Shown here: in pieces, positions 4,334 to 36,404 of the stretch
How positions within the stretch are numbered: position 1 is the first letter of the stretch
How the letters are laid out: each line of letters starts with the position of its first letter
Assembly (NCBI GenBank): GCA_027365415.1
Contig: DAHXNK010000001.1
Span: 6,142-70,141 of the forward strand
DNA length: 64,000 nt
Direction of reading: 5' to 3'
DNA from: Acidobacteriaceae bacterium
GTDB lineage: Bacteria > Acidobacteriota > Terriglobia > Terriglobales > Acidobacteriaceae
Position numbers and translations under genes: made by a program
The notes under the pieces: generated by a model
The model's database searches: none
The model's input: the letters and a program-made list of their open reading frames with translations, nothing else
Told to the model about the DNA's origin: nothing

Positions 4334-5422
4334 TTACTTCTTTCCGGCTTTGACGACCTCTTGGGCGGTTGCGGCTCCGTTGGTTGGCACCGCTGGAATC
4401 TCCGCCACGTCGCCCTTGTTGGCGATGCCGAGCTTCTGGCGCAACTGACTTTCGACGCGGGCAAAGGTCTCCTTGTTGTCCTTGAAGTGCTGGCGCACAT
4501 TCTCGCGGCCTTGACCAATCCGCTCGCCGCTAAAGCTGTACCACGCGCCGGACTTTTCGACGATATTGTGCAGCACGGCCAGGTCGAGTACGTCGCCCTC
4601 GCGGGAGATGCCCTCGCCGTAGAGAATGTCAAACTCCGCCTCGCGGAAGGGCGCAGCCACCTTATTCTTGACGATCTTGACCTTGGTGCGCGAGCCAACG
4701 ATAACATCGCCCTCCTTGACCGCCCCGATGCGGCGAATGTCCACGCGCACGGAGGAATAAAACTTGAGCGCGCGACCGCCCGTGGTGGTTTCGGGATTGC
4801 CGAACATCACGCCAATCTTTTCGCGAATCTGATTGATAAAGATCAAGCTGGTGCGAGATTTTGAGACCGTTCCCGTCAGCTTACGCAGCGCCTGCGACAT
4901 CAGGCGGGCTTGCAGGCCCATGTGCGAATCGCCCATTTCGCCGTCGAGTTCCGCCTTGGGCACCAGCGCAGCGACCGAATCGACAACCAGCACATCAATC
5001 GCTCCGGAGCGCACCAGCGCTTCGGTAATCTCCAACGCCTGCTCGCCGTAATCGGGCTGCGAGATGAGCAGGTTGTCGATATCGACGCCCAGCTTGCGGG
5101 CGTAGATGGGATCGAGCGCGTGCTCGGCATCAACAAAAGCGGCCAAGCCGCCGGCCTTTTGCGCCTCGGCGATGACTTGCAGCGTAATGGTGGTTTTACC
5201 GGAGGATTCTGGGCCAAAAATCTCAATGACGCGGCCACGGGGCAGGCCGCCGACGCCGAGCGCGGCATCGAAGGAGATCGATCCGGTGGAAATTACCGCA
5301 ATGGGAACGATCGCCTCTTTGCTGCCAAGGCGCATGATCGACCCTTTGCCAAACTGCTTTTCAATCTGAGCCAGCGCCAGTTCTACTGCGCGGGAGCGTT
5401 CTTTATCGTCTGCCATTGTCAA
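4334..5422 (-). CDS. recA: recombinase RecA
   Basis: 362 aa. Walker A 'GPESSGKTT'. Canonical RecA N-terminus '[18 protein letters not shown]' and L1/L2 regions. Confidence 0.98.
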
Positions 5423-5664: not shown

Positions 5665-7386
5665 ATGTCGCACTGGACGTTAAGTCGAAAAATTTTGTTG
5701 ATCTGCCTGCTGTTGGTGGCGCTCAATGCCACCATTGGCATCGCATCCTACCTGAGCACGCGACACACGCAGCAGGCCATTGGCGTGTTGGTGCATGATT
5801 CACTGCCGGGCCTGTATATGGCCGGGCAGATGCAATCCATCTCCAAGGATCAGAGCAATGCCATGCAACTGCACATCGACGTGGTAGATCCCGACGAGAT
5901 GGCGGATCAGGAGAACTTAATCGCCCAGGACAATGCCAGCATTATGCAACTGCGCGAGCAGTATCAGAAGCTGATCCCCGCAGATGCAAACACTCTGATA
6001 CAACTGGCTCTAAAACAGCAAGATCTGATGGCCGCGTGGAAGCAGACTCGCGCTCTAAGCGAGGCGGGCCGCAAGCTGGATGCGTGGGACATGTACAAAG
6101 CGCGCGTGCTGCCGATTGTCGGACAGCGCGAGGTTCTGGAGAGTACCTTGGCCAGCAGCAGTCGTCTGCGCGGCGAACGCTGGGCGCAGGATGCGCTGCG
6201 TGCCGTCCATTTCAGCCAGCGCCTGCTTATCCTGATCCTGGCCTTGATGTGTATCGCCGGGTTGGGAGTCTCCTTCTGGTTTGCATACTCCATCCGGCGC
6301 AGCCTACATCCGCTGGAGTACGCCATGGAGCGACTCGGCGAGGGCGACCTGTCGCATCGCGTCAAGATCACCAGCTCTGACGATTTGGGGCAGATGGGGA
6401 AAATCCTGAATCACTCCCTAGCGCGGATTGCACAGACTTTGTCCAGCGTTATCCACAGTTCGCGGCAGGTGCTGGAAAGCGCCGAAGGCATCGCCGCCAT
6501 CGCGCAGCAATCGGCCACCAGCACGGAGACGCAGAAGCACCAGACCGCGCAAATGGCCGCCACCATGCAGGAGATGGCTGCCACCATTCGCGAGATTCGC
6601 GACAGCTCCCACCGCGCCGCCGAGCGCACGCTGGAAGCAGGCGAAGTGGCTCGCAATGGCGGCCTCATCGTAGACGAGGCGATTCATGTAATCCGCTCCG
6701 TTGCTGAATATGCGCATGAAGCCGGAGACAAGCTCTCCAGCCTGAATGAGCGCTCCGGCCAGATCGGCCACATTACCAGCATGATTGAGGAGATCGCCAC
6801 GCAGACGAATTTGTTGGCGCTAAACGCGGCCATCGAAGCGGCGCGAGCAGGCGAACATGGCCGGGGATTTGCGGTGGTCGCCGCAGAGGTACGCAAGTTA
6901 GCCGAGCGCACCGCGCAGGCCACCAGAGAGATCGAGACGATGGTACAGGCCATTCAACAGGAGACGCGTATGGCCGCCACCGCTATGACTTCCAGTGAAG
7001 AAAAAGTGCAGTTGGGCGTGCTGAGCGCGCAGCGGGCGGGCGAATCGCTGATGAAGATCATCACCTCTGCCGAGCAGGTGCAGCACATGGTCAGCCAGAT
7101 TGCCACCGCCGCCACGCAGCAGACCAGCGCCACGGAGGAGATCAATCGCAACATGGATGCCATCGCCAACACTGTGGCCGAAACTGCCGAGGGCGCGCAT
7201 CTCTCTGCCACGGCCTGCCAAAGCCTCAATTCTCTGGCCCTGCAACTGGACCGGATGGTCTCGCAGTTCCGGTTGGAAGAAGCTCCTAGCAATCCTCCAG
7301 AACGCCAGCCCAAGCCTGAGACCGTCGCCACATCGGAACCCAAAGGAGTTTCAGCGCAGCCACGCATCTTTGCTTCCACCGCGTAG
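5665..7386 (+). CDS. methyl-accepting chemotaxis protein
   Basis: Signalling-hairpin motif '[36 protein letters not shown]', a HAMP region and an N-terminal TM helix. I prefer ATG 5665 (GGGAG about 10 nt upstream) over the 5416 ORF start, which overlaps recA. Confidence 0.9.
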
Positions 7387-7564
7387 GAATCTGTTCTTCC
7401 GCCAATCTCTGAATGCGTCTATGTTTTGAGCGGACACCCCAAAAGTTTTGCCTTGGAGAATATTTTTTCTTGCGCTTGGCTGAATCCGCCGCGTTCGCCA
7501 TCCTTTTTCCCGCCAATGCCGATATAATCAAAGATTCCAGCCATACAGAAGGAGTCGCAACTTC

Positions 7565-8503
7565 ATGCCCATTCAGACGACGAAACATATCTGGCACAAC
7601 GGAAAGCTCATCCCATGGGAGCAGGCCAACATCCATGTCATGTCGCATGTGATCCACTACGGGTCCTCCGTTTTTGAGGGAATCCGCTGTTACCAGACCG
7701 AGATCGGCGCGGCCATCTTCCGCCTGTCGGAGCACATGCAGCGCCTGCTCGATTCCGCCAAGATTTATCGCATGGAGCTGCCCTACACGCTGGAGCAACT
7801 GAATGCCGCCGTGGTCGATCTGGTGGAGGCCAACGGCGTTGCGCCCTGCTACATTCGTCCCATTGCGATTCGCGGCTATGGCGAGATTGGCGTCAGTCCG
7901 ATTGGCAGTCCCATCGAGGTCTACGTCGCCAATTTTCCGTGGGGAAAATATGTTGCGGGCGACGCTGCCGATGTCTGCATCTCGTCGTGGAATCGTTTGG
8001 CGCCGAACACCATGCCGTCGATGGCCAAGGCCGGCGCGAACTACATGAATTCGCAGTTGATTCGCATGGAAGCCGCTGCCAATGGCTACTCCGAGGGCAT
8101 TGCGCTCGACGTGAACGGCTACTTGTCAGAAGGCTCCGGCGAGAATCTCTTTATTGTGCGCGGCGGCATTCTGTACACCACGCCGCTGGCCGATTCGATT
8201 CTGTCGGGCATCACGCGGGACTCGGTGATTACGCTGGCCAGAGAGATGGGTTACACCATCGTCGAGCAATCGCTGCCACGCGAGATGATCTACATTGCCG
8301 ACGAGGTCTTCTTTACCGGGACGGCGGCAGAGGTCACTCCCATCCGCTCAGTGGATCGCATTCTGGTCAAGGACGGACAGGTTGGGCCAATTACCAAACA
8401 ACTGGCGACGGAGTTTTTCGGCATCACGTCCGGCAAGCGCCCTGACCGCTTTGGCTGGCTGACCCCGGTCAAGGTCAAGGCCACGGAGACCATCCCAGCG
8501 TAG
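7565..8503 (+). CDS. ilvE: branched-chain amino acid aminotransferase
   Basis: Class IV aminotransferase signatures 'HYGSSVFEGIRCY' and 'EGSGENLF'. GAAGGAG lies 9 nt upstream of the ATG. Confidence 0.93.
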   Translation: MPIQTTKHIWHNGKLIPWEQANIHVMSHVIHYGSSVFEGIRCYQTEIGAAIFRLSEHMQRLLDSAKIYRMELPYTLEQLNAAVVDLVEANGVAPCYIRPIAIRGYGEIGVSPIGSPIEVYVANFPWGKYVAGDAADVCISSWNRLAPNTMPSMAKAGANYMNSQLIRMEAAANGYSEGIALDVNGYLSEGSGENLFIVRGGILYTTPLADSILSGITRDSVITLAREMGYTIVEQSLPREMIYIADEVFFTGTAAEVTPIRSVDRILVKDGQVGPITKQLATEFFGITSGKRPDRFGWLTPVKVKATETIPA

Positions 8504-9547: not shown

Positions 9548-10282
9548 ATGTCCATTGCTGGCAACCTTGCGCGTGTACAAGAGCAGATGCGCGCCGCCTG
9601 TCGTCGTGCCGGACGCCAACCAGAGAGCGTGCAGCTTATGGCCGTCTCGAAAATGCAGTCGCCGGAGCGCATCGTCGAAGCGTATGCCGCAGGGCTGCGA
9701 CTCTTCGGTGAAAATCGCGTGCAGGAGTTTGCGGAAAAGCAGCCTGCGCTGGCAGCGGCAGGAATGTTTACAGGCAGGGCGGCTGCTTCCTTTCATCTCA
9801 TTGGCCCATTGCAATCGAACAAAGCCGCGCGCGCAGCGCAACTCTTCGATGCTATAGATACCGTCGATTCTCTGCGGCTGGCTGAAAAACTGAACCAAAT
9901 CGCTGCCGCTGCTAATGCAACGCTGCCAGTTTTGCTGGAGATCAAACTAAGCGCGGAGACCTCCAAACACGGCCTGCTGCCGGAGAGCGCGGAATTGGCT
10001 CTGCTGCTGGAATGCGCCCCAGATTGGCCGCATCTGCAAGTGCGCGGCCTGATGACCGTTCCGCCATACTCGGAGAATCTCGAAGCGGTCAGGCCGTATT
10101 TTCGCCGCCTGCGCCAGTTGCGCGATGTGCTGACGCAGCAATATCCTCGCCTCGCGCTCGACCAGCTTTCGATGGGCATGTCGCATGATTTCCCCGTAGC
10201 CATCGAAGAAGGCTCGACCTGCACGCGCATCGGCACGGCCATTTTTGGCACGCGTCCGTCGTTGGATACGCGGCAGGAATGA
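9548..10282 (+). CDS. yggS: YggS-family pyridoxal-phosphate homeostasis protein
   Basis: 244 aa with an alanine-racemase N-terminal-like fold pattern and PLP lysine in 'LMAVSKMQ'. Stop overlaps the next gene (ATGA). Confidence 0.88.
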   Translation: MSIAGNLARVQEQMRAACRRAGRQPESVQLMAVSKMQSPERIVEAYAAGLRLFGENRVQEFAEKQPALAAAGMFTGRAAASFHLIGPLQSNKAARAAQLFDAIDTVDSLRLAEKLNQIAAAANATLPVLLEIKLSAETSKHGLLPESAELALLLECAPDWPHLQVRGLMTVPPYSENLEAVRPYFRRLRQLRDVLTQQYPRLALDQLSMGMSHDFPVAIEEGSTCTRIGTAIFGTRPSLDTRQE

Positions 10283-27894: not shown

Positions 27895-28827
27895 CTAACG
27901 CTTGAGGAGACTACTACCTTTTTCAGAACGGGCCAAGGCTGCCTTTTGATCTTGTAGTATCTTCCACATGGTTCCGCTGAAAATCATTTCTTGCGCATGT
28001 TGGGAAACGGAACAGGCATCGAGGAGCTGATGATACCGCGCCAGCTCGGTATCAAATTCCGCAACATCGCCATTGAATACATCGGATCCAAAGACAAGTT
28101 TTTCAAAAGCACTGGCATCGCTCGCCGGGGTATGGAGGCTTTTTACTCCTGTCCACCAGAAAACAGATTTGAAATAGGCATAATTGTCTTTCATCTTGAT
28201 GAGCGTGGAGCCAGAGATATCAAAATACAGGTTTGGATCCCATCGGGCAATTTCTGCTGCTTCCGAGTAATCGGGATTACCAAGATGGGCACCGATGATG
28301 ATTAAATTGGGAAATCTTCTGGCAATCAAATCAAGCCTGCTCGCCCGCATCCGATCAAAGCTGACGTCTTGTGCCTGCTCTGGATCCTCACGAAGGACAA
28401 CCCCCGTGTGAAAATGCAATATCATGTGATATTTTTGCGCGCGCTCATAAATTGGCCAGTAAGCGCGGTCATCGTAGTTCCTTTTCGTCGATGAAATTTC
28501 CCCAAGACCAAGGAACCCGTCCCGATGCAGGCGATCTACTTGTTGCAAAATGTCCCGATCATCCAAGTGAACATCTCCGAACCCTATAAATCGGTCTGGG
28601 TGCTGCTGGATAAATTTACGCGCTTCTGGAAGACCTTTTGGGGTGACGCATAAGATGGCCAATCCATCCACTTGATCCATTTTCTCCAACATTTTCTGTA
28701 ACACACCGGGTTCACCATTGTAGTGAACCATCGTATCAATCAACTTGGGCTGATGATCCTGCGCCGGAACACTCCAAGAGGCCACGGCTAGCAATACGGC
28801 GACAACTGCGCTCTTATAGAAATTCAT
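27895..28827 (-). CDS. exported amidohydrolase-2 (TIM-barrel metallo-hydrolase) family protein
   Basis: Signal peptide, 'IDTMVHY', 'HFHTG' and 'GSD' pattern. Very low G+C (33% in line 28141). Confidence 0.65.
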   Translation of the reverse strand: MNFYKSAVVAVLLAVASWSVPAQDHQPKLIDTMVHYNGEPGVLQKMLEKMDQVDGLAILCVTPKGLPEARKFIQQHPDRFIGFGDVHLDDRDILQQVDRLHRDGFLGLGEISSTKRNYDDRAYWPIYERAQKYHMILHFHTGVVLREDPEQAQDVSFDRMRASRLDLIARRFPNLIIIGAHLGNPDYSEAAEIARWDPNLYFDISGSTLIKMKDNYAYFKSVFWWTGVKSLHTPASDASAFEKLVFGSDVFNGDVAEFDTELARYHQLLDACSVSQHAQEMIFSGTMWKILQDQKAALARSEKGSSLLKR

Positions 28828-28854
28828 ATCTGCGTTTTTTCTCCTTCTTGTCTA

Positions 28855-30960
28855 CTACCACTGGACGGAAATCATCGCATACGCTTTCATATCCGGCACG
28901 GTAAACTGTGTGCTAGAACTGTCGTTGGTAAAGTCGAGCGATCGCGCACCCTTTGCGCCGGGAGCATAGAGCGTTACCTTTTGCGCCTTCTTATTCTTTG
29001 GCAACACCACTCGAACTTTTAAGTTGGAGAGAGTTGGCGTCTTCACCACGTCGTAGTTCACCAAATGGACAAGGAATCGTTGACTCCTTGTCTGGCGCGT
29101 ACAATTTGCGACCAGAAAATCCGGGCCATCCAACGTAAGAGGAATCTGATCCTCCGCAGCCCACTGGACGGCGTCGGTGATGTCCTTCCAGTTCTTCGGA
29201 CGTTTCCAGAAGATATTGGAAACCCAGAAGTAAGGTTCGGGAGGAGGCATAACTCCGTCAAACTGTATGGCTGGGAGATACGCTACTTTCCCGGAGCCAA
29301 CCTTGTTCCGGGTCGGAGTCCCGGTGTCTTTCGCATGGGCTTGCACATCCTGCTGATAGGCTACGCCAGCGGTCTGCCCTTCTACCAGCCCACTCAGTCC
29401 AGGCTGTACGCGTACCCGTCTCCAGTTATCATAAAGCCCAGACTGCTCTGTGACCACCAACCCACCTCCACCCTCCACATAGCGGCGGATGAGAGCGATC
29501 TGCTCGTCGGAGAGGCATTCGGAATTGGGGAGGACAAGAACCTTATACTTGGATAGGTCGTGAAGATGCTCATCGAAGATCAGTGCAAAAGGAATTCTCG
29601 ATTGAATCAGAGATTGCTCGACCAGAATCGCGCTTAGTTGCGCGCGGGAGTTATGGTAGGTCAGCGAAGCGTAGGATCGCAATACCGCGACGGGAGTTAC
29701 ATCTTCGCTATCCAGATACAGATCTTTGTTCTCGCGATAAAAATCAATATAGCGCAGTGTTGCCGGAGAAAGTACATTGCTTCCCACAAAACCAAGTGTC
29801 TGGTTGAATGCGAGCGCCTCGGCCATCCCCACAGGGTCATGATTCGCATAAGTCAACAGGACATTGTTGTAGATTCTGGCAAGTTTGTAACTGCGGATTT
29901 TTGAAATTAACCGACCATCGGGATTGTAAGTTGGCATATCCCGCTCCTCACTCCAGAAGGATTCCGTAAATTTCAAAAGCCTGGAATGATCGACCCCGGA
30001 TGTCCACGGATGATTCTCTCCGTTGATGCCCCCCGGATTGATCTCGATAGCGACTTCGGAGTTGAGAGACTTTGCATATTCAGAAACCTGCTGTAGTGCG
30101 TCAGCCATTGTCTGGCAGCGAAAATCAATCCACTCCTGAAAGGCGGGATCGTAGATGATTTCCATATCCTCTGGAAGGTTGTCGCTGTTCCATTGTGGGG
30201 GATTGATGAAGGAAACATTTTCAAAGCCGAACCGCTCCCGCAATTGCTTTGGACTGTACTTCGTTCTGAGATACTTCCGAAATCCGTTGACGCACCACGG
30301 ACAGTGGCAGGAAGATGGCTCGGCATTGAGGTTGAAATTATCGAAATGAATGAAATCCGTTTTCACTTCTACGATCGCATAATGCACGACTTTTTTGAGG
30401 TAATTGAGATAATCCTGATTGGTAAAACATGGCATGTAGCGGAAGGATTGCTGGTAGCCATAGGTGATGAGAATGGGCAGCCCTGAGATATCCCGCTGGA
30501 TCCATTGCGTAGCGCGTGGCTCCTCCGCAAAAAACGTCTCATACATCATGGATCCCCATTGAACGTAGGTGTCCACCTTCATGCCATAGCGATGGGCGAT
30601 GGCCACGGCATCCCGTGTGCCCTCCATTTCTGATTTTTCAGCCGCCATTCCAAACCCTTTGTAGAGATGGGTGTGAAAGACTTCGACTCCCTGATCGTGG
30701 AGTTTCTTGATGAGCGCTTCGCTCTGCTCATACTTGCTGATTTGAAGCGCATCCAAGCGCTGCCCGCCACGGCGCACGATGAAGATGTACGGCTCATGGC
30801 CGCCGCCTGCGTCAATCATGCCGTTCCGCAACCATTCTCCCTGTCCACTCTCTGGCCCAGCCAAGGAAACGGACATGGCCGATGCAGCCGGGATTCCAAG
30901 TTGCGTTAGCGAGGCCGACGCAACCATAGCGCCGATAAAGTCTCTGCGGTTAAGTGCCAT
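28855..30960 (-). CDS. TAT-exported GH42-like beta-galactosidase family protein
   Basis: Twin-arginine 'LNRRDFIGAM'. GH42-type Cys cluster 'SCHCPWCVNGFRKYLRTKY'. C-terminal GATase-like 'VLVLPNSECLSDEQIALIRRYVEGGGGLV'. G+C about 38-43% by line counts. Confidence 0.65.
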   Translation of the reverse strand: MALNRRDFIGAMVASASLTQLGIPAASAMSVSLAGPESGQGEWLRNGMIDAGGGHEPYIFIVRRGGQRLDALQISKYEQSEALIKKLHDQGVEVFHTHLYKGFGMAAEKSEMEGTRDAVAIAHRYGMKVDTYVQWGSMMYETFFAEEPRATQWIQRDISGLPILITYGYQQSFRYMPCFTNQDYLNYLKKVVHYAIVEVKTDFIHFDNFNLNAEPSSCHCPWCVNGFRKYLRTKYSPKQLRERFGFENVSFINPPQWNSDNLPEDMEIIYDPAFQEWIDFRCQTMADALQQVSEYAKSLNSEVAIEINPGGINGENHPWTSGVDHSRLLKFTESFWSEERDMPTYNPDGRLISKIRSYKLARIYNNVLLTYANHDPVGMAEALAFNQTLGFVGSNVLSPATLRYIDFYRENKDLYLDSEDVTPVAVLRSYASLTYHNSRAQLSAILVEQSLIQSRIPFALIFDEHLHDLSKYKVLVLPNSECLSDEQIALIRRYVEGGGGLVVTEQSGLYDNWRRVRVQPGLSGLVEGQTAGVAYQQDVQAHAKDTGTPTRNKVGSGKVAYLPAIQFDGVMPPPEPYFWVSNIFWKRPKNWKDITDAVQWAAEDQIPLTLDGPDFLVANCTRQTRSQRFLVHLVNYDVVKTPTLSNLKVRVVLPKNKKAQKVTLYAPGAKGARSLDFTNDSSSTQFTVPDMKAYAMISVQW

Positions 30961-31013: not shown

Positions 31014-31676
31014 CTACGACATCGACGCGCGGCGGTCGATCCCATGCGCAGCAACGACCTGAACGATGCGCTCCTGTATCTCTTCGATCGGCAGATCGCC
31101 TTTGATCGCGACAACACGGGTCGCCTCTCGTGCGGCAATCTCGCGATACTTGGCAAAAACTTTTTCGTGGAAGGTTCGTCTCTCGCGTTCAAAACGATCC
31201 GCAGCGTCGGTCTGTGCGTTGGAACTACGGCTGCGTGTGCGGGCCAGACTGATTTCCAACGGGGGCAACAGCAGAATCGTCAGGTCAGGTTGCAGGTTGC
31301 CGCAGAGTACACGGTGAAGCGCCAGAACAGCATCGCTGCCCAGCTCGCGTCCGCCGCCCTGATACGCTTCGGTGGAGTCGGTAAAGCGGTCGCAGAGAAC
31401 GATCTTGCCCGCCTCCAGCGCGGGGGAGATGATCTGCTGGATCGACTGAGCGCGGTCGGCAAACATCAGCGCCATCTCGGTCATCGGGGCGACCCCGGTA
31501 GTCTTTGCGTCGAGTAACAATGCGCGAATGCGCTCGCCAAGCGCAGTATCTCCCGGCTGGCGCGTAACCAGAATCGGCAGCCCTTGCTGCTCCAGCGCTT
31601 CGGCCAGAAGGCGCAACTGCGTGGTCTTGCCAGAGCCGTCGAGTCCCTCAAAGGTAAGAAAAAAACCGCGCCGCAT
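31014..31676 (-). CDS. tmk: dTMP kinase
   Basis: P-loop 'FEGLDGSGKTT' and 'TRQPGDT'. Confidence 0.93.
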   Translation of the reverse strand: MRRGFFLTFEGLDGSGKTTQLRLLAEALEQQGLPILVTRQPGDTALGERIRALLLDAKTTGVAPMTEMALMFADRAQSIQQIISPALEAGKIVLCDRFTDSTEAYQGGGRELGSDAVLALHRVLCGNLQPDLTILLLPPLEISLARTRSRSSNAQTDAADRFERERRTFHEKVFAKYREIAAREATRVVAIKGDLPIEEIQERIVQVVAAHGIDRRASMS

Positions 31677-31731
31677 GGCGTGAGTTTACCATCGGGCTGT
31701 CTGTCATGCAGTGTGAAATTGACACCGCCGC

Positions 31732-31744
31732 GCTGCATGAAAAC
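31732..31744. repeat. 13-bp direct repeat, left copy (GCTGCATGAAAAC)
   Basis: Identical 13-mer at 33571-33583. The two copies bracket the Mrr-like gene exactly; the left copy ends on the first base of its stop codon. Confidence 0.8.
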
Positions 31745-33531
31745 TATTCGATTGTTAATTTACTTAATAGTTTTGCTTCCTGTAAATCGATTTTCGCCTT
31801 GTGCCCATGCGCAGCGAGCAAGCCAAGAAGTTCATTCCCACTCAACAGGGTTAGCGGTTTCCCTTTGGCGAACTCGTAGGCATCCGGGCCATAGGTAGAC
31901 GTGGTGACAAGGATGCCCTTATTCGCCCCTTCGTTATGCACTGTGCCGAAAAGGTCACGTACCGCAGCTACTCCCACGACGTTGGTATACCGCTTGGCCT
32001 GAATGATGATCTTGCCACCACGAATCGGATCAGGATCAAAGGCGATTGCATCAACGCCACCATCGCGGCTGGCCTGTGTAATCTTGACCTCTCCACCGTT
32101 TTTGCTGAATTCCTTTTCAAATATTTCCCGAACCAAATTCTCAAAATCGACCCAATCCATTGCGGCCAGGTTGGTGCGATCATCCAGTGTTTCGGCTACG
32201 GCATACGAATCCACAAAACGAGGGTCTTCTTTGTTAATCGTTAAAATTGGGCGTATTGGGGCTAATTCTGTGAGTTTGCTGCTCGCTACGCCCTTGAGCT
32301 TGCGAAAACAGGCTTTGGGTTCTACTTGGCTCAGGTTGATCTGAAGAAATTCCTCGCGTTCAGCCTGTACGGAGAGTATGCAGCCGTGAGTCTCTATTCC
32401 TGTGGCCTTGTCAATGCTACGAACCCAACCGTTAAAAACGATGCTTTTCAATGTCTCTGACTCATCCGCAGCGAAAAGTTCGTGGAGCGTTCTGAGGGCA
32501 ACCTGATAGAGCACATCGTCATACGTGCGTTTCATCCACGCTTCAGACATGGGTACTTTTTGATGTTGATTGCGGGCGGCAATATATTTGACTTCTTTGA
32601 TTTTAGGAAGGGCTGATTGATTGGGAAGTTCAAAGTCCACAACCAAAACCCTATTGCTTTGATTGAAACTTACAGTGCTGTCTTGCGGGAAGTTGTCTGG
32701 ATATGACGAATGGTTTAAGACCTCGGAGCAGAAGAATTCCACGGCCTTAACATCGCCTTCAGTAAATTCGTTTTTCAATTGATCGATATGCGTGTGCTGT
32801 TCTTTTACGGTTGATTCATAGCATGCTCGATTTTTCTCCCATGCAGAAAGCTGTTTAGAGTACGCAGACATAGCTGCTTGAAAGCCTGTCTCGATAGAGG
32901 CGCAGTCCCTATTCCACTGGGTCAACGCGGACTGATAGGCCGTTTCAATGGACGCACAGTTTTTACTCCACTTTGCCAACTCAGATTGATAGGACGTTTC
33001 CAGTGACGCACAATTTTCTCTCCATTGCATCTTTGCAGATGCAAGATCGCTTGCAGCCTTCATTGCTTTTATACGGCGCATGCCAAGAAATGTATGAATA
33101 AAGGTAATAGCTGGAAGAAACTGACTCCCGTTTGGCTCTGGTGGCATAACGGGAACATCTGGTTTTAATGGAATTACAGAGATGCCTGGCTTTATGGGTT
33201 TTACGCCAGCCATAGGTTTTCGAGGATGGTTTTCACTGAAGGTTGTTTTATCTTTCAAGCAATCCCAGCCGAGAGGAGGCTGCTGAAGGCTTGATTTAAG
33301 GAGAGTTCCGAGCGCGGTCACATGTTCTTGTATTTCTTCTGTGAGGCTGCTGGCAGTCTCTTTGCCGAAAGATAATAAGTCTGTCTTTTTTTGCTTGACC
33401 AACAAAGAGTTCCAGCGCTCATCCCACTTTGCTAGCTGCAACCCAGCCTTAAGTTCTGCTTCTTTCTGGGTAGAACCTCGAACCACTCTATAAGCTCTCA
33501 ATCCTTTATGCTGAATTGTTACTTCCCACAT
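31744..33531 (-). CDS. restriction endonuclease (Mrr-cat, PD-(D/E)xK) domain protein with a large uncharacterised N-terminal region
   Basis: C-terminal 'ASRDGGVDAIAF...GGKIIIQAKRY...GILVTTSTYGPDAYEFA' fits the Mrr catalytic-domain pattern (D...D/E-x-K). No Mrr_N-type N-terminus. About 43-47% G+C by line counts. Confidence 0.85.
   Translation of the reverse strand: MWEVTIQHKGLRAYRVVRGSTQKEAELKAGLQLAKWDERWNSLLVKQKKTDLLSFGKETASSLTEEIQEHVTALGTLLKSSLQQPPLGWDCLKDKTTFSENHPRKPMAGVKPIKPGISVIPLKPDVPVMPPEPNGSQFLPAITFIHTFLGMRRIKAMKAASDLASAKMQWRENCASLETSYQSELAKWSKNCASIETAYQSALTQWNRDCASIETGFQAAMSAYSKQLSAWEKNRACYESTVKEQHTHIDQLKNEFTEGDVKAVEFFCSEVLNHSSYPDNFPQDSTVSFNQSNRVLVVDFELPNQSALPKIKEVKYIAARNQHQKVPMSEAWMKRTYDDVLYQVALRTLHELFAADESETLKSIVFNGWVRSIDKATGIETHGCILSVQAEREEFLQINLSQVEPKACFRKLKGVASSKLTELAPIRPILTINKEDPRFVDSYAVAETLDDRTNLAAMDWVDFENLVREIFEKEFSKNGGEVKITQASRDGGVDAIAFDPDPIRGGKIIIQAKRYTNVVGVAAVRDLFGTVHNEGANKGILVTTSTYGPDAYEFAKGKPLTLLSGNELLGLLAAHGHKAKIDLQEAKLLSKLTIE
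32883..33044 (-). repeat. three diverged 54-bp (18-aa) tandem repeats inside the Mrr-like ORF
   Basis: Protein repeats WRENCASLETSYQSELAK / WSKNCASIETAYQSALTQ / WNRDCASIETGFQAAMSA, followed by a degenerate WEKNRACYESTVKEQ. Confidence 0.8.
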
Positions 33532-33570
33532 TCGCAGATCCTCTCAGCCATACAGCGCCATTGTATTGAT

Positions 33571-33583
33571 GCTGCATGAAAAC
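33571..33583. repeat. 13-bp direct repeat, right copy (GCTGCATGAAAAC)
   Basis: Lies 40 nt upstream of the Mrr-like gene start (minus strand). Identical to 31732-31744. Confidence 0.8.
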
Positions 33584-33671
33584 ATACAAATCTAAAATTG
33601 TTGATATACGCAGCATGTTTTAACTTTTCTCCTCGCTCTGCATTACACTGGTCTGTCATTCCATCGCTCCA

Positions 33672-35606
33672 ATGCTTCGGAGGAATATGCGTCGGAAATC
33701 CTTGCTTCTCCCCTGTCTCGTCTCGATTCTTGCTATCTCAACCAGCCACGCGCAAACAGGCCAGCCTGCGCCTACCGCTCCCAGCGCGGCCACGCCCATC
33801 ACGGTTGCGGTGGACGCGACTGACGCGCCGCGCAAGATGCTGCACGCGCATCTGACGATCCCCGTGCATCCCGGCGATGTGACGCTGCTCTACGCCAAGT
33901 GGATTCCCGGTGAGCATGAGCCGAGCGGCCCCATCGACAATCTTGCAGGCTTGGTGATTCAAGCCAACGGCCAGACGTTGTCATGGGTGCGCGACAGCAT
34001 CAATATGTGCGCCATTCATCTCCATGTGCCTGCCGGGGTCACGGTGCTTGATGTGCGCGATGATTTTCTGGCGACCGCAGCGGCAACGGGCTTTTCTGCC
34101 GGAGCCTCCACCAGCGACAATCTGGCGATGATTAGCTGGAATGAAGTGATGCTCTACCCGCAGGGCAAGGTCGCTGCCGATATTCCTGTCACGGCCTCGG
34201 TGACGCTGCCTGATGGCTGGCAATATGGCACGGCGCTCACCTCCACAGGGCATGAGGGAAATACCACGCGCTTTGCCACCGTGTCGCTGGAGCAACTGAT
34301 CGACTCACCCGTGCTGAGCGGGCGGTACTTCAAAGAGATTCCGCTGGCTCCAGAGGTAACGCCGAAGCACTATCTCGACCTAGCCGCCGATGGGCCAGAG
34401 GATTTAGATCTTCGACCGAAGACCGTGGCCGCCTTCAACAATCTGGTGCGCGAAGCGGGCGCGCTGTATGCCTCGCGCCATTACACCAGCTATCACTTTC
34501 TGGTGACGCTCAGCGATCAGGTAGCGCACTTTGGGTTGGAGCATCATCAATCCAGCGACGACCGCGTGCGCGAGAAAACATTTTTACAGCCCGACCTGTT
34601 GCTGCTGGAAGGCGATTTGCTGCCGCATGAGTTCACGCACTCCTGGAATGGAAAATATCGTCGCCCGGAAGGGCTGCTCTCCCCGGATTACCAGACTCCG
34701 ATGCGGGATGATTTGTTGTGGGTCTACGAAGGTCTGACGGAGTATCTGGGGGGCGTGCTGGCCACGCGCAGCGGCATCTGGACGGAGCAGCAGTATAGAG
34801 ACGCGCTGGCCAACACGGCGGCAATGCTCAATGCGCGTCCGGGCCGCACCTGGCGCAATCTACAGGACACGGCGACGGCGGCGCAGATTCTCTACGACAG
34901 CAGCGACCAGTGGGATAACTGGCGACGCGGCGTGGATTTCTATCCTGAGGGCGAACTGATCTGGCTCGACGTGGATACCACGATTCGGCAGCAGAGCCAC
35001 GGCAGAAAGTCGATTGACGATTTCACTGCGCGCTTTCATGGTCTGGGCGGGAACACGCCGCCCAAGGTGGTGCCGTATACCTTCGATGATGTCGTCAGCA
35101 ATCTGAACGCGGTGCAGCCCTATGATTGGGCAAGCTTTCTCCGCGAACGGCTGAATGCCAAATCGCCAAACGCGCCAATGGGCGGCATTAAGCACGGCGG
35201 CTACCAACTGATATATACCGACACGCCGAATGAAATGATGCAGGCGCGCGAATCCCTGAGTGGCGTGAATGCCTGGTTCTCCCTAGGCCTGCTGGTTGCG
35301 CCGGATGGCGGCATTCGTGATGTGTTGATCGACTCGGCAGCGTACAAAGCGGGCCTGGGGCCGGGGATGAAGATCGTTGCCGTCAACAGCCGCCAGTATG
35401 ACGACAGTCGAATGCGCGCTGCGATCCGCGATTCCAGCGGCAGCAAAACGCCGATCCAGATGATTGTCGAGAACACGGGATATTTCCGCGTGATCAACAT
35501 CGACTATCACGGCGGAGCGCGCTACCCCTCGCTCCAGCGCGTAAGCGCCACGCCGAATTTGCTGGATGAAATTCTGACACCGAGAACAGCGCCACCGAAG
35601 AATTAG
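33672..35606 (+). CDS. M61 family glycyl aminopeptidase with C-terminal PDZ domain
   Basis: Signal peptide, zinc motif 'HEFTHSWNGK', and PDZ-like 'AAYKAGLGPGMKIVAVN'. Confidence 0.88.
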   Translation: MLRRNMRRKSLLLPCLVSILAISTSHAQTGQPAPTAPSAATPITVAVDATDAPRKMLHAHLTIPVHPGDVTLLYAKWIPGEHEPSGPIDNLAGLVIQANGQTLSWVRDSINMCAIHLHVPAGVTVLDVRDDFLATAAATGFSAGASTSDNLAMISWNEVMLYPQGKVAADIPVTASVTLPDGWQYGTALTSTGHEGNTTRFATVSLEQLIDSPVLSGRYFKEIPLAPEVTPKHYLDLAADGPEDLDLRPKTVAAFNNLVREAGALYASRHYTSYHFLVTLSDQVAHFGLEHHQSSDDRVREKTFLQPDLLLLEGDLLPHEFTHSWNGKYRRPEGLLSPDYQTPMRDDLLWVYEGLTEYLGGVLATRSGIWTEQQYRDALANTAAMLNARPGRTWRNLQDTATAAQILYDSSDQWDNWRRGVDFYPEGELIWLDVDTTIRQQSHGRKSIDDFTARFHGLGGNTPPKVVPYTFDDVVSNLNAVQPYDWASFLRERLNAKSPNAPMGGIKHGGYQLIYTDTPNEMMQARESLSGVNAWFSLGLLVAPDGGIRDVLIDSAAYKAGLGPGMKIVAVNSRQYDDSRMRAAIRDSSGSKTPIQMIVENTGYFRVINIDYHGGARYPSLQRVSATPNLLDEILTPRTAPPKN

Positions 35607-35867
35607 AGCGAATCCCCCAGATGATGAAATACAAATCCGAAGGATGTCATTCTTCAAGGTGCACACTTCGTCGATGCATCTAACATTCTCTGGATTCTTC
35701 ATCGGGTGCCCATCCTCGCCGCAGCGAGTGTGGGAGGAAAAATCTAAGGAAGCTCTGAACAAGTCAGCGTCTTGAAGGGGCGGGGCTTTAGCCCCTGAGG
35801 GACAGCAGTGGAACTTGATCAGAGTTTCCCTACATTCAATCCGAGGCAGTTGTATCGGGAACGTACC

Positions 35868-35913
35868 GCACCCATCCCACCCTTCGCAAAAAACACGAAG
35901 GATGGGGCACCTG
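35868..35913. repeat. REP-like hairpin element (ccatcc..ccttcg-caaaaaaca-cgaaggatgg ggcacctg)
   Basis: Imperfect palindrome with the 'ggggcacc' tail shared with 2481-2493 and 12156-12166. It replaces the 3' end of the transposase relic. Confidence 0.5.
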
Positions 35914-35914
35914 T

Positions 35915-36404
35915 CTTGTGGAAATTCATCGCGGCGGCTGCCAGGATCGCGTTGATCGCATTTCCAGCGTCGCTCTTCAGCCGATTGCCTTCCAATCGGT
36001 GTTCGCTCTTCAAATGTCCGATGCGTGGCTCCACTGCGGCGCGCCGTTTCATCCATTGCCATAGCGCTCGTGGAGTTCTGCCTCTTCGCCGCTTATCGAC
36101 ATGTGCGGCGACCGCACCGTCATAGCCATGGCCTTGATAATCTATGTCCACGTGCGCTTCGCCGACCTTGGCACCGACGAATCATCCACCGCGACTGCTG
36201 ACCGCTACACTGACCTTGTTGCCGAACTCGTACTGCTTGCCCGCCCTGGCTGGGATGATAGGTGCTGCCCAGAGTCTGCTCAAACGACGACCAATCACGG
36301 CAAAGAGCGAGTCGAACCAATGGATGGCTCCTGTCGATCAACTGCTCCAAATCTATCTGAAATAATTCCAGATGTGGCTGCCCAGCTTCGCGCTTGGGCC
36401 GCAT
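35915..36404 (-). mobile_element. IS5-family insertion-sequence relic (transposase gene with large internal deletion and frameshift)
   Basis: N-terminal piece 'MRPKREAGQPHLELFQIDLEQLIDRSHPLVRLA..' and C-terminal piece 'DYQGHGYDG...MKRRAAVEPRIGHLKSEHRLEGNRLKS..NAILAAAAMNFHK' resemble IS5-type DDE transposases. About 300 central codons are missing and the pieces are in different frames. Confidence 0.75.

Follow-up and report, generated by a model that had tools for sequence, protein, structure and literature searches.

The closest described counterparts of the gene analyzed here, a solitary Mrr-family nuclease gene in the genome of an Acidobacteriaceae bacterium, are Mrr of Escherichia coli and the type IV restriction enzymes. 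The gene lies in a 64,000-nucleotide stretch of GenBank assembly GCA_027365415.1 (contig DAHXNK010000001.1, positions 6,142 to 70,141 of the forward strand), referred to below as the window, and window coordinates are used throughout unless a related locus is named. Like Mrr and the type IV enzymes, the encoded protein has a C-terminal Mrr_cat domain with a D...QxK site, stands alone without a methyltransferase, and matches the mREase_IV model of PADLOC. Unlike them, it has neither an Mrr_N winged helix nor a recognized modified-DNA reader, and ∼455 amino acids (aa) predicted to form a hairpin, a helical stalk, and an alpha/beta domain stand where those enzymes carry the reader. The modification-dependent type IIM enzymes MspJI and AspBHI (PDB 4F0Q and 4OC8) are the best structural matches of the predicted full-length model, by way of the nuclease domain, but their N-terminal SRA-like 5-methylcytosine-binding domain has no counterpart here, and the overall template modeling (TM) score is 0.19 to 0.28.

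Upx (Gao_Upx) is an anti-phage nuclease that consists of a single protein, is regulated by its middle domain, and is activated by a phage protein (PMC13099982). In it, as in the present protein, one polypeptide has a PD-(D/E)xK nuclease at its C terminus, preceded by a middle domain and an N-terminal part. This likeness is one of analogy only, and the protein analyzed here has no PADLOC match to the Upx model. PADLOC models of Lamassu and other named nuclease defense systems did not match either, and no partner genes, such as one for the structural maintenance of chromosomes (SMC)-like LmuB, accompany the gene. The architecture is not described in the literature searched. Judging from the title of a 2025 Microbiol Res article, the Mrr-family nuclease Sll1429 of Synechocystis is reportedly linked to resistance to mitomycin C and phage; it may or may not belong to the present family.

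An earlier note, made from the letters of the window alone, had described the gene as a cassette bracketed by a perfect 13-bp direct repeat, which it took for the signature of an insertion. Our analysis favors a different history. With a probability of about 0.6, the gene is a horizontally acquired, stand-alone Mrr-family nuclease in a hotspot of cargo turnover, it likely acts as a single-gene, restriction-like defense, and the repeat is not the footprint of its arrival. A single-gene restriction-like nuclease is suggested because the Mrr_cat domain is intact, no partner gene is present, the base composition is foreign, the hotspot is shared with toxin-antitoxin (TA) modules, and relatives of the gene are carried by plasmids and prophages.

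An intact nuclease gene without partners

The nuclease gene occupies positions 31744 to 33531 on the minus strand and encodes 595 aa in an intact open reading frame (ORF) that begins with ATG and ends with TAG at 31744 to 31746. It lies between two backbone genes, as had been stated from the sequence: tmk, encoding dTMP kinase (31014 to 31676, minus strand; Pfam Thymidylate_kin, E value of 1.5e-47), and a gene for an M61 glycyl aminopeptidase, called M61 below (33672 to 35606, plus strand; Peptidase_M61, E value of 3.6e-34). The low G+C content that had been ascribed to the gene was also found, at 46.7% (47% at third codon positions [GC3]) versus 60.8% for tmk and 59.6% for M61 (GC3 of ∼70%).

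The C-terminal Mrr-type nuclease domain recognized in the earlier note corresponds to Pfam PF04471, Mrr_cat, a PD-(D/E)xK domain spanning aa 456 to 571 (31819 to 32166, minus strand; E value of 2.7e-31). The residues of the catalytic D...QxK motif, D494, Q511, and K513, do not vary among 71 homologues, and neither do ∼80 further positions; this implies purifying selection. The PADLOC mREase_IV model PDLC03663 matches aa 242 to 579 over profile positions 196 to 530 of 544 (E value of 3.6e-69). Other PADLOC matches are to mREase_II, to PDC-S02 in the C-terminal part, and, weakly and in a coiled coil, to JetC (E value of 1e-3).

The rarity that had been implied for this architecture is not seen. 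The whole 595-aa layout recurs in >100 clusters at 46 to 81% identity and ∼99% coverage, mostly from Acidobacteriaceae and annotated as "restriction endonuclease" or "restriction system protein." Homologous proteins number 5,264 at E values of <1e-3, and the N-terminal 440 aa alone retrieve 2,606 representative clusters (50% identity), 535 of them at E values of <1e-30. Plasmids of several phyla, among them those of Alphaproteobacteria, Clostridium, Streptomyces, and Xanthomonas, carry homologues, which also occur in 41 IMG/VR contigs. In IMG/VR UViG_2585428147_000001 (locus L181), a prophage encodes a full-length member (607 aa, 43% identity; 5986 to 7809) on the strand opposite to that of its portal and head maturation protease genes; the gene lies between these two and beside the anti-repressor Ant, a typical moron position. 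The gene is indeed solitary: neither here nor around homologues at unrelated loci was a methyltransferase or partner gene found. Carriage by plasmids and prophages and the occurrence of solitary genes at varied loci fit a mobile, self-sufficient defense gene.

Cargo turnover between tmk and M61

Eighty genomic loci were fetched around M61 orthologues and tmk was then located in them, which left ∼50 informative loci. The divergent tmk/M61 pair is conserved across the Acidobacteriaceae. The gap between the two genes is empty or near-empty in ∼25 of the ∼50 loci; in the remainder it measures 0.6 to 2.9 kb and holds unrelated small genes, which encode a DinB-like 182-aa protein, an S-adenosylmethionine (SAM) methyltransferase, a small membrane protein, and a ribbon-helix-helix (RHH) protein.

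The nuclease gene stands beside M61 only in L001 to L006 among the loci compared. These share 90% DNA identity with the window in M61 and 79 to 81% aa identity in the nuclease, and they have the order M61, nuclease gene, RelB-ParE, a helix-turn-helix (HTH) gene, and the insertion sequence IS481. L170 (85% DNA identity in tmk and 83% in M61) has the order M61, RelB-ParE (7310 to 7944), and tmk and lacks the nuclease gene. In L221 (88% aa identity in tmk), a gene for a HigB-like toxin (233 to 529) is located upstream of tmk, and in L166 to L169 and L220 (89% DNA identity in tmk), only a ParE remnant lies beside tmk, followed by pyrG. The closest relatives by tmk (86 to 88% aa identity) carry TA modules or a rearranged flank at the slot, and none of them is an empty site. 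For a near-identical empty site, a scan of JGI metagenomes with tmk returned nothing above 75% identity, and no contig could be traced for P0270, a tmk protein 100% identical to that of the window. No tRNA gene was found within 20 to 45 kb of the slot.

Since only L001 to L006 carry the nuclease gene beside M61, we regard it as acquired cargo in an exchanging slot. The view that it is foreign to the backbone, already taken before relatives were consulted, is upheld by the conserved tmk and M61 flanks, by the ∼25 of ∼50 gaps that are empty or near-empty, and by the atypical G+C content. Sequence comparison indicates that the tmk-M61 slot is a hotspot repeatedly exchanging defense and TA genes. 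It resembles other defense and TA hotspots flanked by core genes in that the flanks, tmk and M61, are conserved and the cargo varies (empty, RelB/ParE, HigB-like toxin, DinB-like protein, methyltransferase, or nuclease). It differs from them in being small, 0 to 3 kb with one to three genes, and in having neither an integrase nor a tRNA gene.

The 13-bp repeat and the tmk-side junction

The sequence GCTGCATGAAAAC (plus strand) is present at 31732 to 31744 and again at 33571 to 33583, an exact match at 13 of 13 positions as first reported, and a 13-mer count found these two matches only in the 64-kb window, even with one mismatch allowed. Copy 1 ends on the outermost base of the TAG stop codon, and homology to the nuclease gene of the relatives begins within it at 31740. 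Copy 2 lies 39 to 40 nt upstream of the ATG, inside the putative promoter spacer and the gene-specific upstream segment. The bracketed unit of 1,839 bp comprises the 13-mer, a 39-nt leader, and the ORF, and the ORF list gives one long gene for it, in agreement with the single-gene claim. The further statement that no transposase or integrase is present holds inside the unit, with its single ORF, but not in the surroundings, where a DDE transposase fragment is encoded 2.2 kb away and IS481 adjoins the island in relatives. The fragment belongs to a region just downstream of M61 (35819 to 36404, minus strand) with pieces of an IS5-type transposase that looks like a decayed insertion sequence: ORF 35819 to 36151 matches the C-terminal part of DDE_Tnp_1 only (E value of 2.4e-5), and the adjacent ORF 36120 to 36404 has no Pfam match.

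Direct 13-mer pairs less than 3 kb apart occur seven times in the window versus 3.7 ± 1.8 times in Markov shuffles, so that such a pair is not rare in itself. Its position around a gene was assessed in 924 long ORFs, taken from the window and related Acidobacteriaceae loci, by matching the 150 nt before each ORF to the 100 nt after it. An exact match of at least 13 nt was found for two of these ORFs, the nuclease gene and one unrelated gene with 14 nt. The flanking position is therefore uncommon (∼1 in 900 per gene), yet it is expected now and then when many windows are scanned. A third, imperfect copy (11 of 13) lies inside the nuclease ORF at 32873 to 32885.

The proposal that the repeat is a target-site duplication or insertion footprint was not borne out by the relatives. 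L170, which lacks the nuclease gene and is not a truly empty site because RelB/ParE occupy the slot, stops matching the window at 31695, 37 nt before copy 1, and resumes at 33638, 54 nt beyond copy 2; its M61-proximal spacer has no 13-mer-like sequence. With this homology starting only at 33638, the boundary is 54 nt away from copy 2, which falls within the gene-specific upstream segment. In L001 and L006, copy 2 reads GCTGCATGAGAAT, with two mismatches, copy 1 is absent, and the longest match between the flanks is 8 nt. Past the nuclease stop codon, their sequence is unrelated to the window beyond a few bases, homology starting at 31740. Flank repeats are also missing from more distant homologues at other loci, which possess hairpin terminators of their own. 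Terminal inverted repeats are lacking at the ends of the unit, which does not encode a recombinase either.

A patchwork of segments makes up the 67-nt spacer that separates tmk from the nuclease gene. Within it, the unstranded segment 31705 to 31728 (CATGCAGTGTGAAATTGACACCGC) is identical at 19 of 24 positions to L001 (reverse-complement coordinates 5371 to 5394), a score reached by 0 of 500 shuffles, and the same element occurs in L006. Its counterpart in L001 and L006 combines the 3'-terminal part of the HTH gene with the 3' flank of ParE, 7 nt away. As a fragment of a gene cannot be older than the gene itself, the lineage of the window once held the HTH gene and ParE-RelB beside the nuclease gene and later lost them by deletion. 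By this sequence evidence, the tmk-side junction is a deletion scar, and copy 1 appears exactly there.

We also considered whether the 13-mer could be a regulatory motif conserved in the tmk-M61 spacer and rejected this, as it has no consistent position in ∼50 related spacers with up to 3 mismatches allowed. A degenerate version, GCNGCRTGAAAA, was not enriched across 219 loci. The identity of copies 1 and 2 could possibly reflect coincidence (∼1e-3 per gene) or a by-product of scar repair, such as short templated synthesis.

The non-catalytic two-thirds of the protein

The absence of the usual Mrr_N domain from aa 1 to 455, noticed at the outset, was confirmed, and no other Pfam or NCBIfam domain was found in this region. 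Nor was a methyl-DNA reader, which would have made the protein an ordinary type IV enzyme, detected in it by Pfam, by a PDB sequence search, or by Foldseek of the middle domain. An AlphaFold2 model built with 71 homologues (mean predicted local distance difference test [pLDDT] of 86) predicts, in order, a beta-hairpin, a 54-residue helix, a Pro-rich linker, a 107-residue helix, an alpha/beta middle domain, and Mrr_cat. The hairpin (aa 2 to 19) and the following long helix (aa 22 to 75) are encoded at 33304 to 33531 (minus strand) and are conserved across the family.

The tandem 18-aa repeats described before are real. Three of them (W-x-x-N/D-C-A-S-I/L-E-T-x-Y/F-Q...; aa 170 to 223; 32863 to 33024, minus strand) share 39 to 61% aa identity with one another and lie within the predicted 107-residue helix (aa 152 to 258). 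Tandem Repeats Finder reported nothing in the gene because the repeats are too diverged in DNA (52 to 76% identity). Most homologues have one repeat, the window protein has three, and P0047 has ∼7. Eighteen residues make five turns of an alpha-helix. The number varies even among close homologues (P0001, P0002, and P0047), and the predicted length of the stalk shifts by ∼27 Å per unit.

The alpha/beta middle domain (aa 261 to 425; 32257 to 32751, minus strand; pLDDT of 80 to 95) falls within the PADLOC model and phrog_38135. Modeled alone (pLDDT of 80), it gave no significant fold match in a Foldseek search of the PDB (best E value of 3.6e-3, TM score of <0.3), and in BFVD it matched only uncharacterized phage proteins. 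Foldseek matches of the full-length model are to AspBHI and MspJI (E values of 6e-8 to 1e-7) and AF1548, and a family profile searched against the PDB gave residues 273 to 373 of AspBHI as the sole match in the nuclease region. The full-length matches to AspBHI and MspJI had suggested that the middle domain holds an SRA-like reader; this was discarded, as the isolated domain does not match them and the profile aligns the nuclease part only. Two motifs of the middle domain, D299-x-E301 and K312-E313-x-K315, are nearly invariant; they lie on adjacent predicted strands (aa 299 to 315; 32587 to 32637), and the spacing of D299...E313-x-K315 resembles a PD-(D/E)xK motif. A duplicated Mrr_cat domain is not indicated (hhalign probability of 0.1%, no profile similarity). 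One idea suggested by the spacing is that D299...E313-x-K315 might be a second, degenerate nuclease-like site, a possible further resemblance to Upx.

Longer relatives combine the N-terminal and middle module with other domains (P0140, P0248, P0253, P0267, P0135, P0186, and P0225). In four proteins, TerB_N/TerB/TerB_C replaces Mrr_cat; two module relatives have an N-terminal RNase_T and no Mrr_cat, one of them with HEAT repeats as well, and in one an N-terminal HIRAN domain is added. These fusions to TerB_N/TerB/TerB_C or RNase_T lend plausibility to the sensor-plus-effector layout that had been read from the sequence. A speculative extension is that the hairpin, repeat stalk, and alpha/beta domain make up a new sensor or scaffold module with interchangeable effectors (Mrr_cat, TerB_N/TerB/TerB_C, or RNase T). 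If so, single-protein immune receptors of this build would be a widespread class, now mislabeled as type IV restriction enzymes, in which one to seven repeats would tune the geometry of the stalk and D299...E313-x-K315 would mark a cryptic nuclease-like or ligand site.

Origin and function of the nuclease gene

In the history that we favor, the ancestral locus would have been a larger island like that of the relatives (HTH gene, ParE-RelB, nuclease gene, and M61), which deletions on the tmk side would then have reduced to the present arrangement of tmk, nuclease gene, and M61. Copy 2 would be a part of the upstream region that belongs to the nuclease gene itself, and copy 1 would combine the scar with the 3' flank of the gene. 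In the protein, the helical stalk is probably an oligomerization element, and the middle domain, with the stalk, may select or sense foreign DNA or a trigger, upon which the C-terminal D...QxK site would cut DNA, with no need for a methyltransferase, as in type IV enzymes. By analogy with the described systems, recognition of modified DNA, as in type IV enzymes, and response to another infection cue, as in abortive infection and Upx, seem roughly equally likely.

The alternative history is that the 1,839-bp unit was inserted into an empty tmk-M61 spacer and that the 13-mer was duplicated as a target-site duplication or as attL/attR. The exactness of the repeat, its confinement to two copies in 64 kb, its placement against the stop codon and 40 nt before the start, and the finding of comparable flank repeats around only 2 of 924 ORFs all speak for such an event, as do the clearly foreign nature of the gene and the ∼157-nt spacer, within the range of empty sites, that results when the flanks are fused with one copy. 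It is hard to reconcile, however, with gene-less L170, which has no 13-mer-like sequence and whose homology starts 54 nt beyond copy 2, or with the gene-carrying relatives, which lack copy 1 and differ at two positions of copy 2. The remnant of the HTH/ParE flank beside copy 1 makes the junction secondary; terminal inverted repeats, a recombinase, and a tRNA gene are missing; other family members have no flank repeats, and the degenerate motif shows no enrichment in the 219 loci. We therefore consider an insertion of this kind improbable, whether by a transposition-like event, by a site-specific one, or through a circular intermediate that recombined at the 13-bp core. Slightly less probable is that the gene is a passenger, decaying or domesticated, with the repeat a pure coincidence and no role in defense, for example, a nuclease related to DNA repair. 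That the repeat could be fortuitous is made easier to accept by the seven 13-mer pairs within 3 kb in the window, by the 14-nt flank match of one unrelated ORF among 923, and by the third, imperfect copy in the ORF, and deletions have eroded the surrounding island. A role in DNA repair would also fit the mitomycin C resistance reportedly linked to Sll1429, if that nuclease is a homologue. The ORF itself, however, is intact, and the invariance of the catalytic and ∼80 other positions in 71 homologues argues for purifying selection.

An alternative that leaves location and history as they are concerns function: the hairpin, stalk, and middle domain might sense a phage protein or a DNA structure and unleash a non-specific nuclease, so that the protein would be an abortive-infection sensor. 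This analogy draws on auto-inhibited single-protein nucleases such as Upx, which is regulated by a middle domain and triggered by a phage protein (PMC13099982), and it would account for a module joined to other effectors (TerB_N/TerB/TerB_C, RNase_T with HEAT, and HIRAN), for the lack of a known DNA-modification reader fold, and for the variable number of stalk repeats in a family carried by prophages. PADLOC, however, returns restriction-enzyme models and PDC-S02 and no Upx or Abi-type model, effector swapping is confined to a minority of the family, and no trigger was identified here. We regard the abortive-infection sensor as a tentative alternative, and as the likeliest of those considered.

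Several observations weigh against the restriction-like defense nuclease and the history that we prefer for it. As no known reader of modified DNA resembles the middle domain, "type IV" is here a matter of annotation only, and the literature searched yielded no verifiable experiment on any family member. Homologues often sit among housekeeping genes and not in obvious defense islands. A flank match of 13 of 13 is uncommon (∼1 to 2 per 900 genes), and coincidence is not a comfortable explanation for it. The closest relatives compared have ∼90% DNA identity, so the empty and intermediate states are not directly shown, and the differences in the 13-mer cannot be polarized.

The locus illustrates how little a perfect short repeat on both sides of a foreign gene says about the mechanism of insertion; it was the relatives that revealed a slot gaining and losing small defense and TA cargo and a junction made by deletion. 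The nuclease gene is most likely an ordinary member of a catalogued, experimentally uncharacterized family of single-gene defense nucleases. With thousands of members, carriage by plasmids and prophages, and non-catalytic two-thirds that have no known fold, this family is a reasonable, not an urgent, target for study.

Spacers and neighboring sequences

The gene-specific 5' region of the nuclease gene (33532 to 33637, minus strand) measures 106 nt, is 93% conserved in L001 and L006, and is absent from L170. TACAAT at 33560 to 33565 (minus strand) could be a -10 element; a scan with promoter and terminator consensus sequences made no call in either spacer, this candidate included. Around copy 2, an AT-rich imperfect palindrome spans 33578 to 33623, with arms GCTGC...GCAGC and GAAAACAT...ATGTTTT. 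It sits in the divergent promoter region of the nuclease gene and M61 and is conserved in L001 and L006; by its sequence, it could be a candidate operator. The adjoining M61-proximal segment (33638 to 33671, plus strand) is common to L170, L001, and L006. At the other end of the slot, the tmk-proximal segment (31677 to 31695, minus strand) is common to L166 and L170 and contains TGGTAAACT, a possible extended -10 element.

Downstream of tmk, two low-G+C genes occupy 27895 to 30960 (minus strand) and encode an amidohydrolase (47.7%) and a 701-aa Glyco_hydro_42M protein (51.6%). The Glyco_hydro_42M gene also follows tmk in L166 to L169 and L220, and L170 has holB (DNA polymerase III delta') there. 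Since the contents downstream of tmk differ among relatives, genes are replaced on this flank of tmk as well.

Downstream of M61, a non-coding element of 50 to 90 nt (35743 to 35832) has two counterparts in the 13-kb locus L001, in opposite orientations and with 85 to 92% identity (reverse-complement coordinates 739 to 865 and 9984 to 10109). The window copy showed no internal inverted repeat. Its recurrence suggests that the element may be a small dispersed repeat or resemble a miniature inverted-repeat transposable element (MITE).

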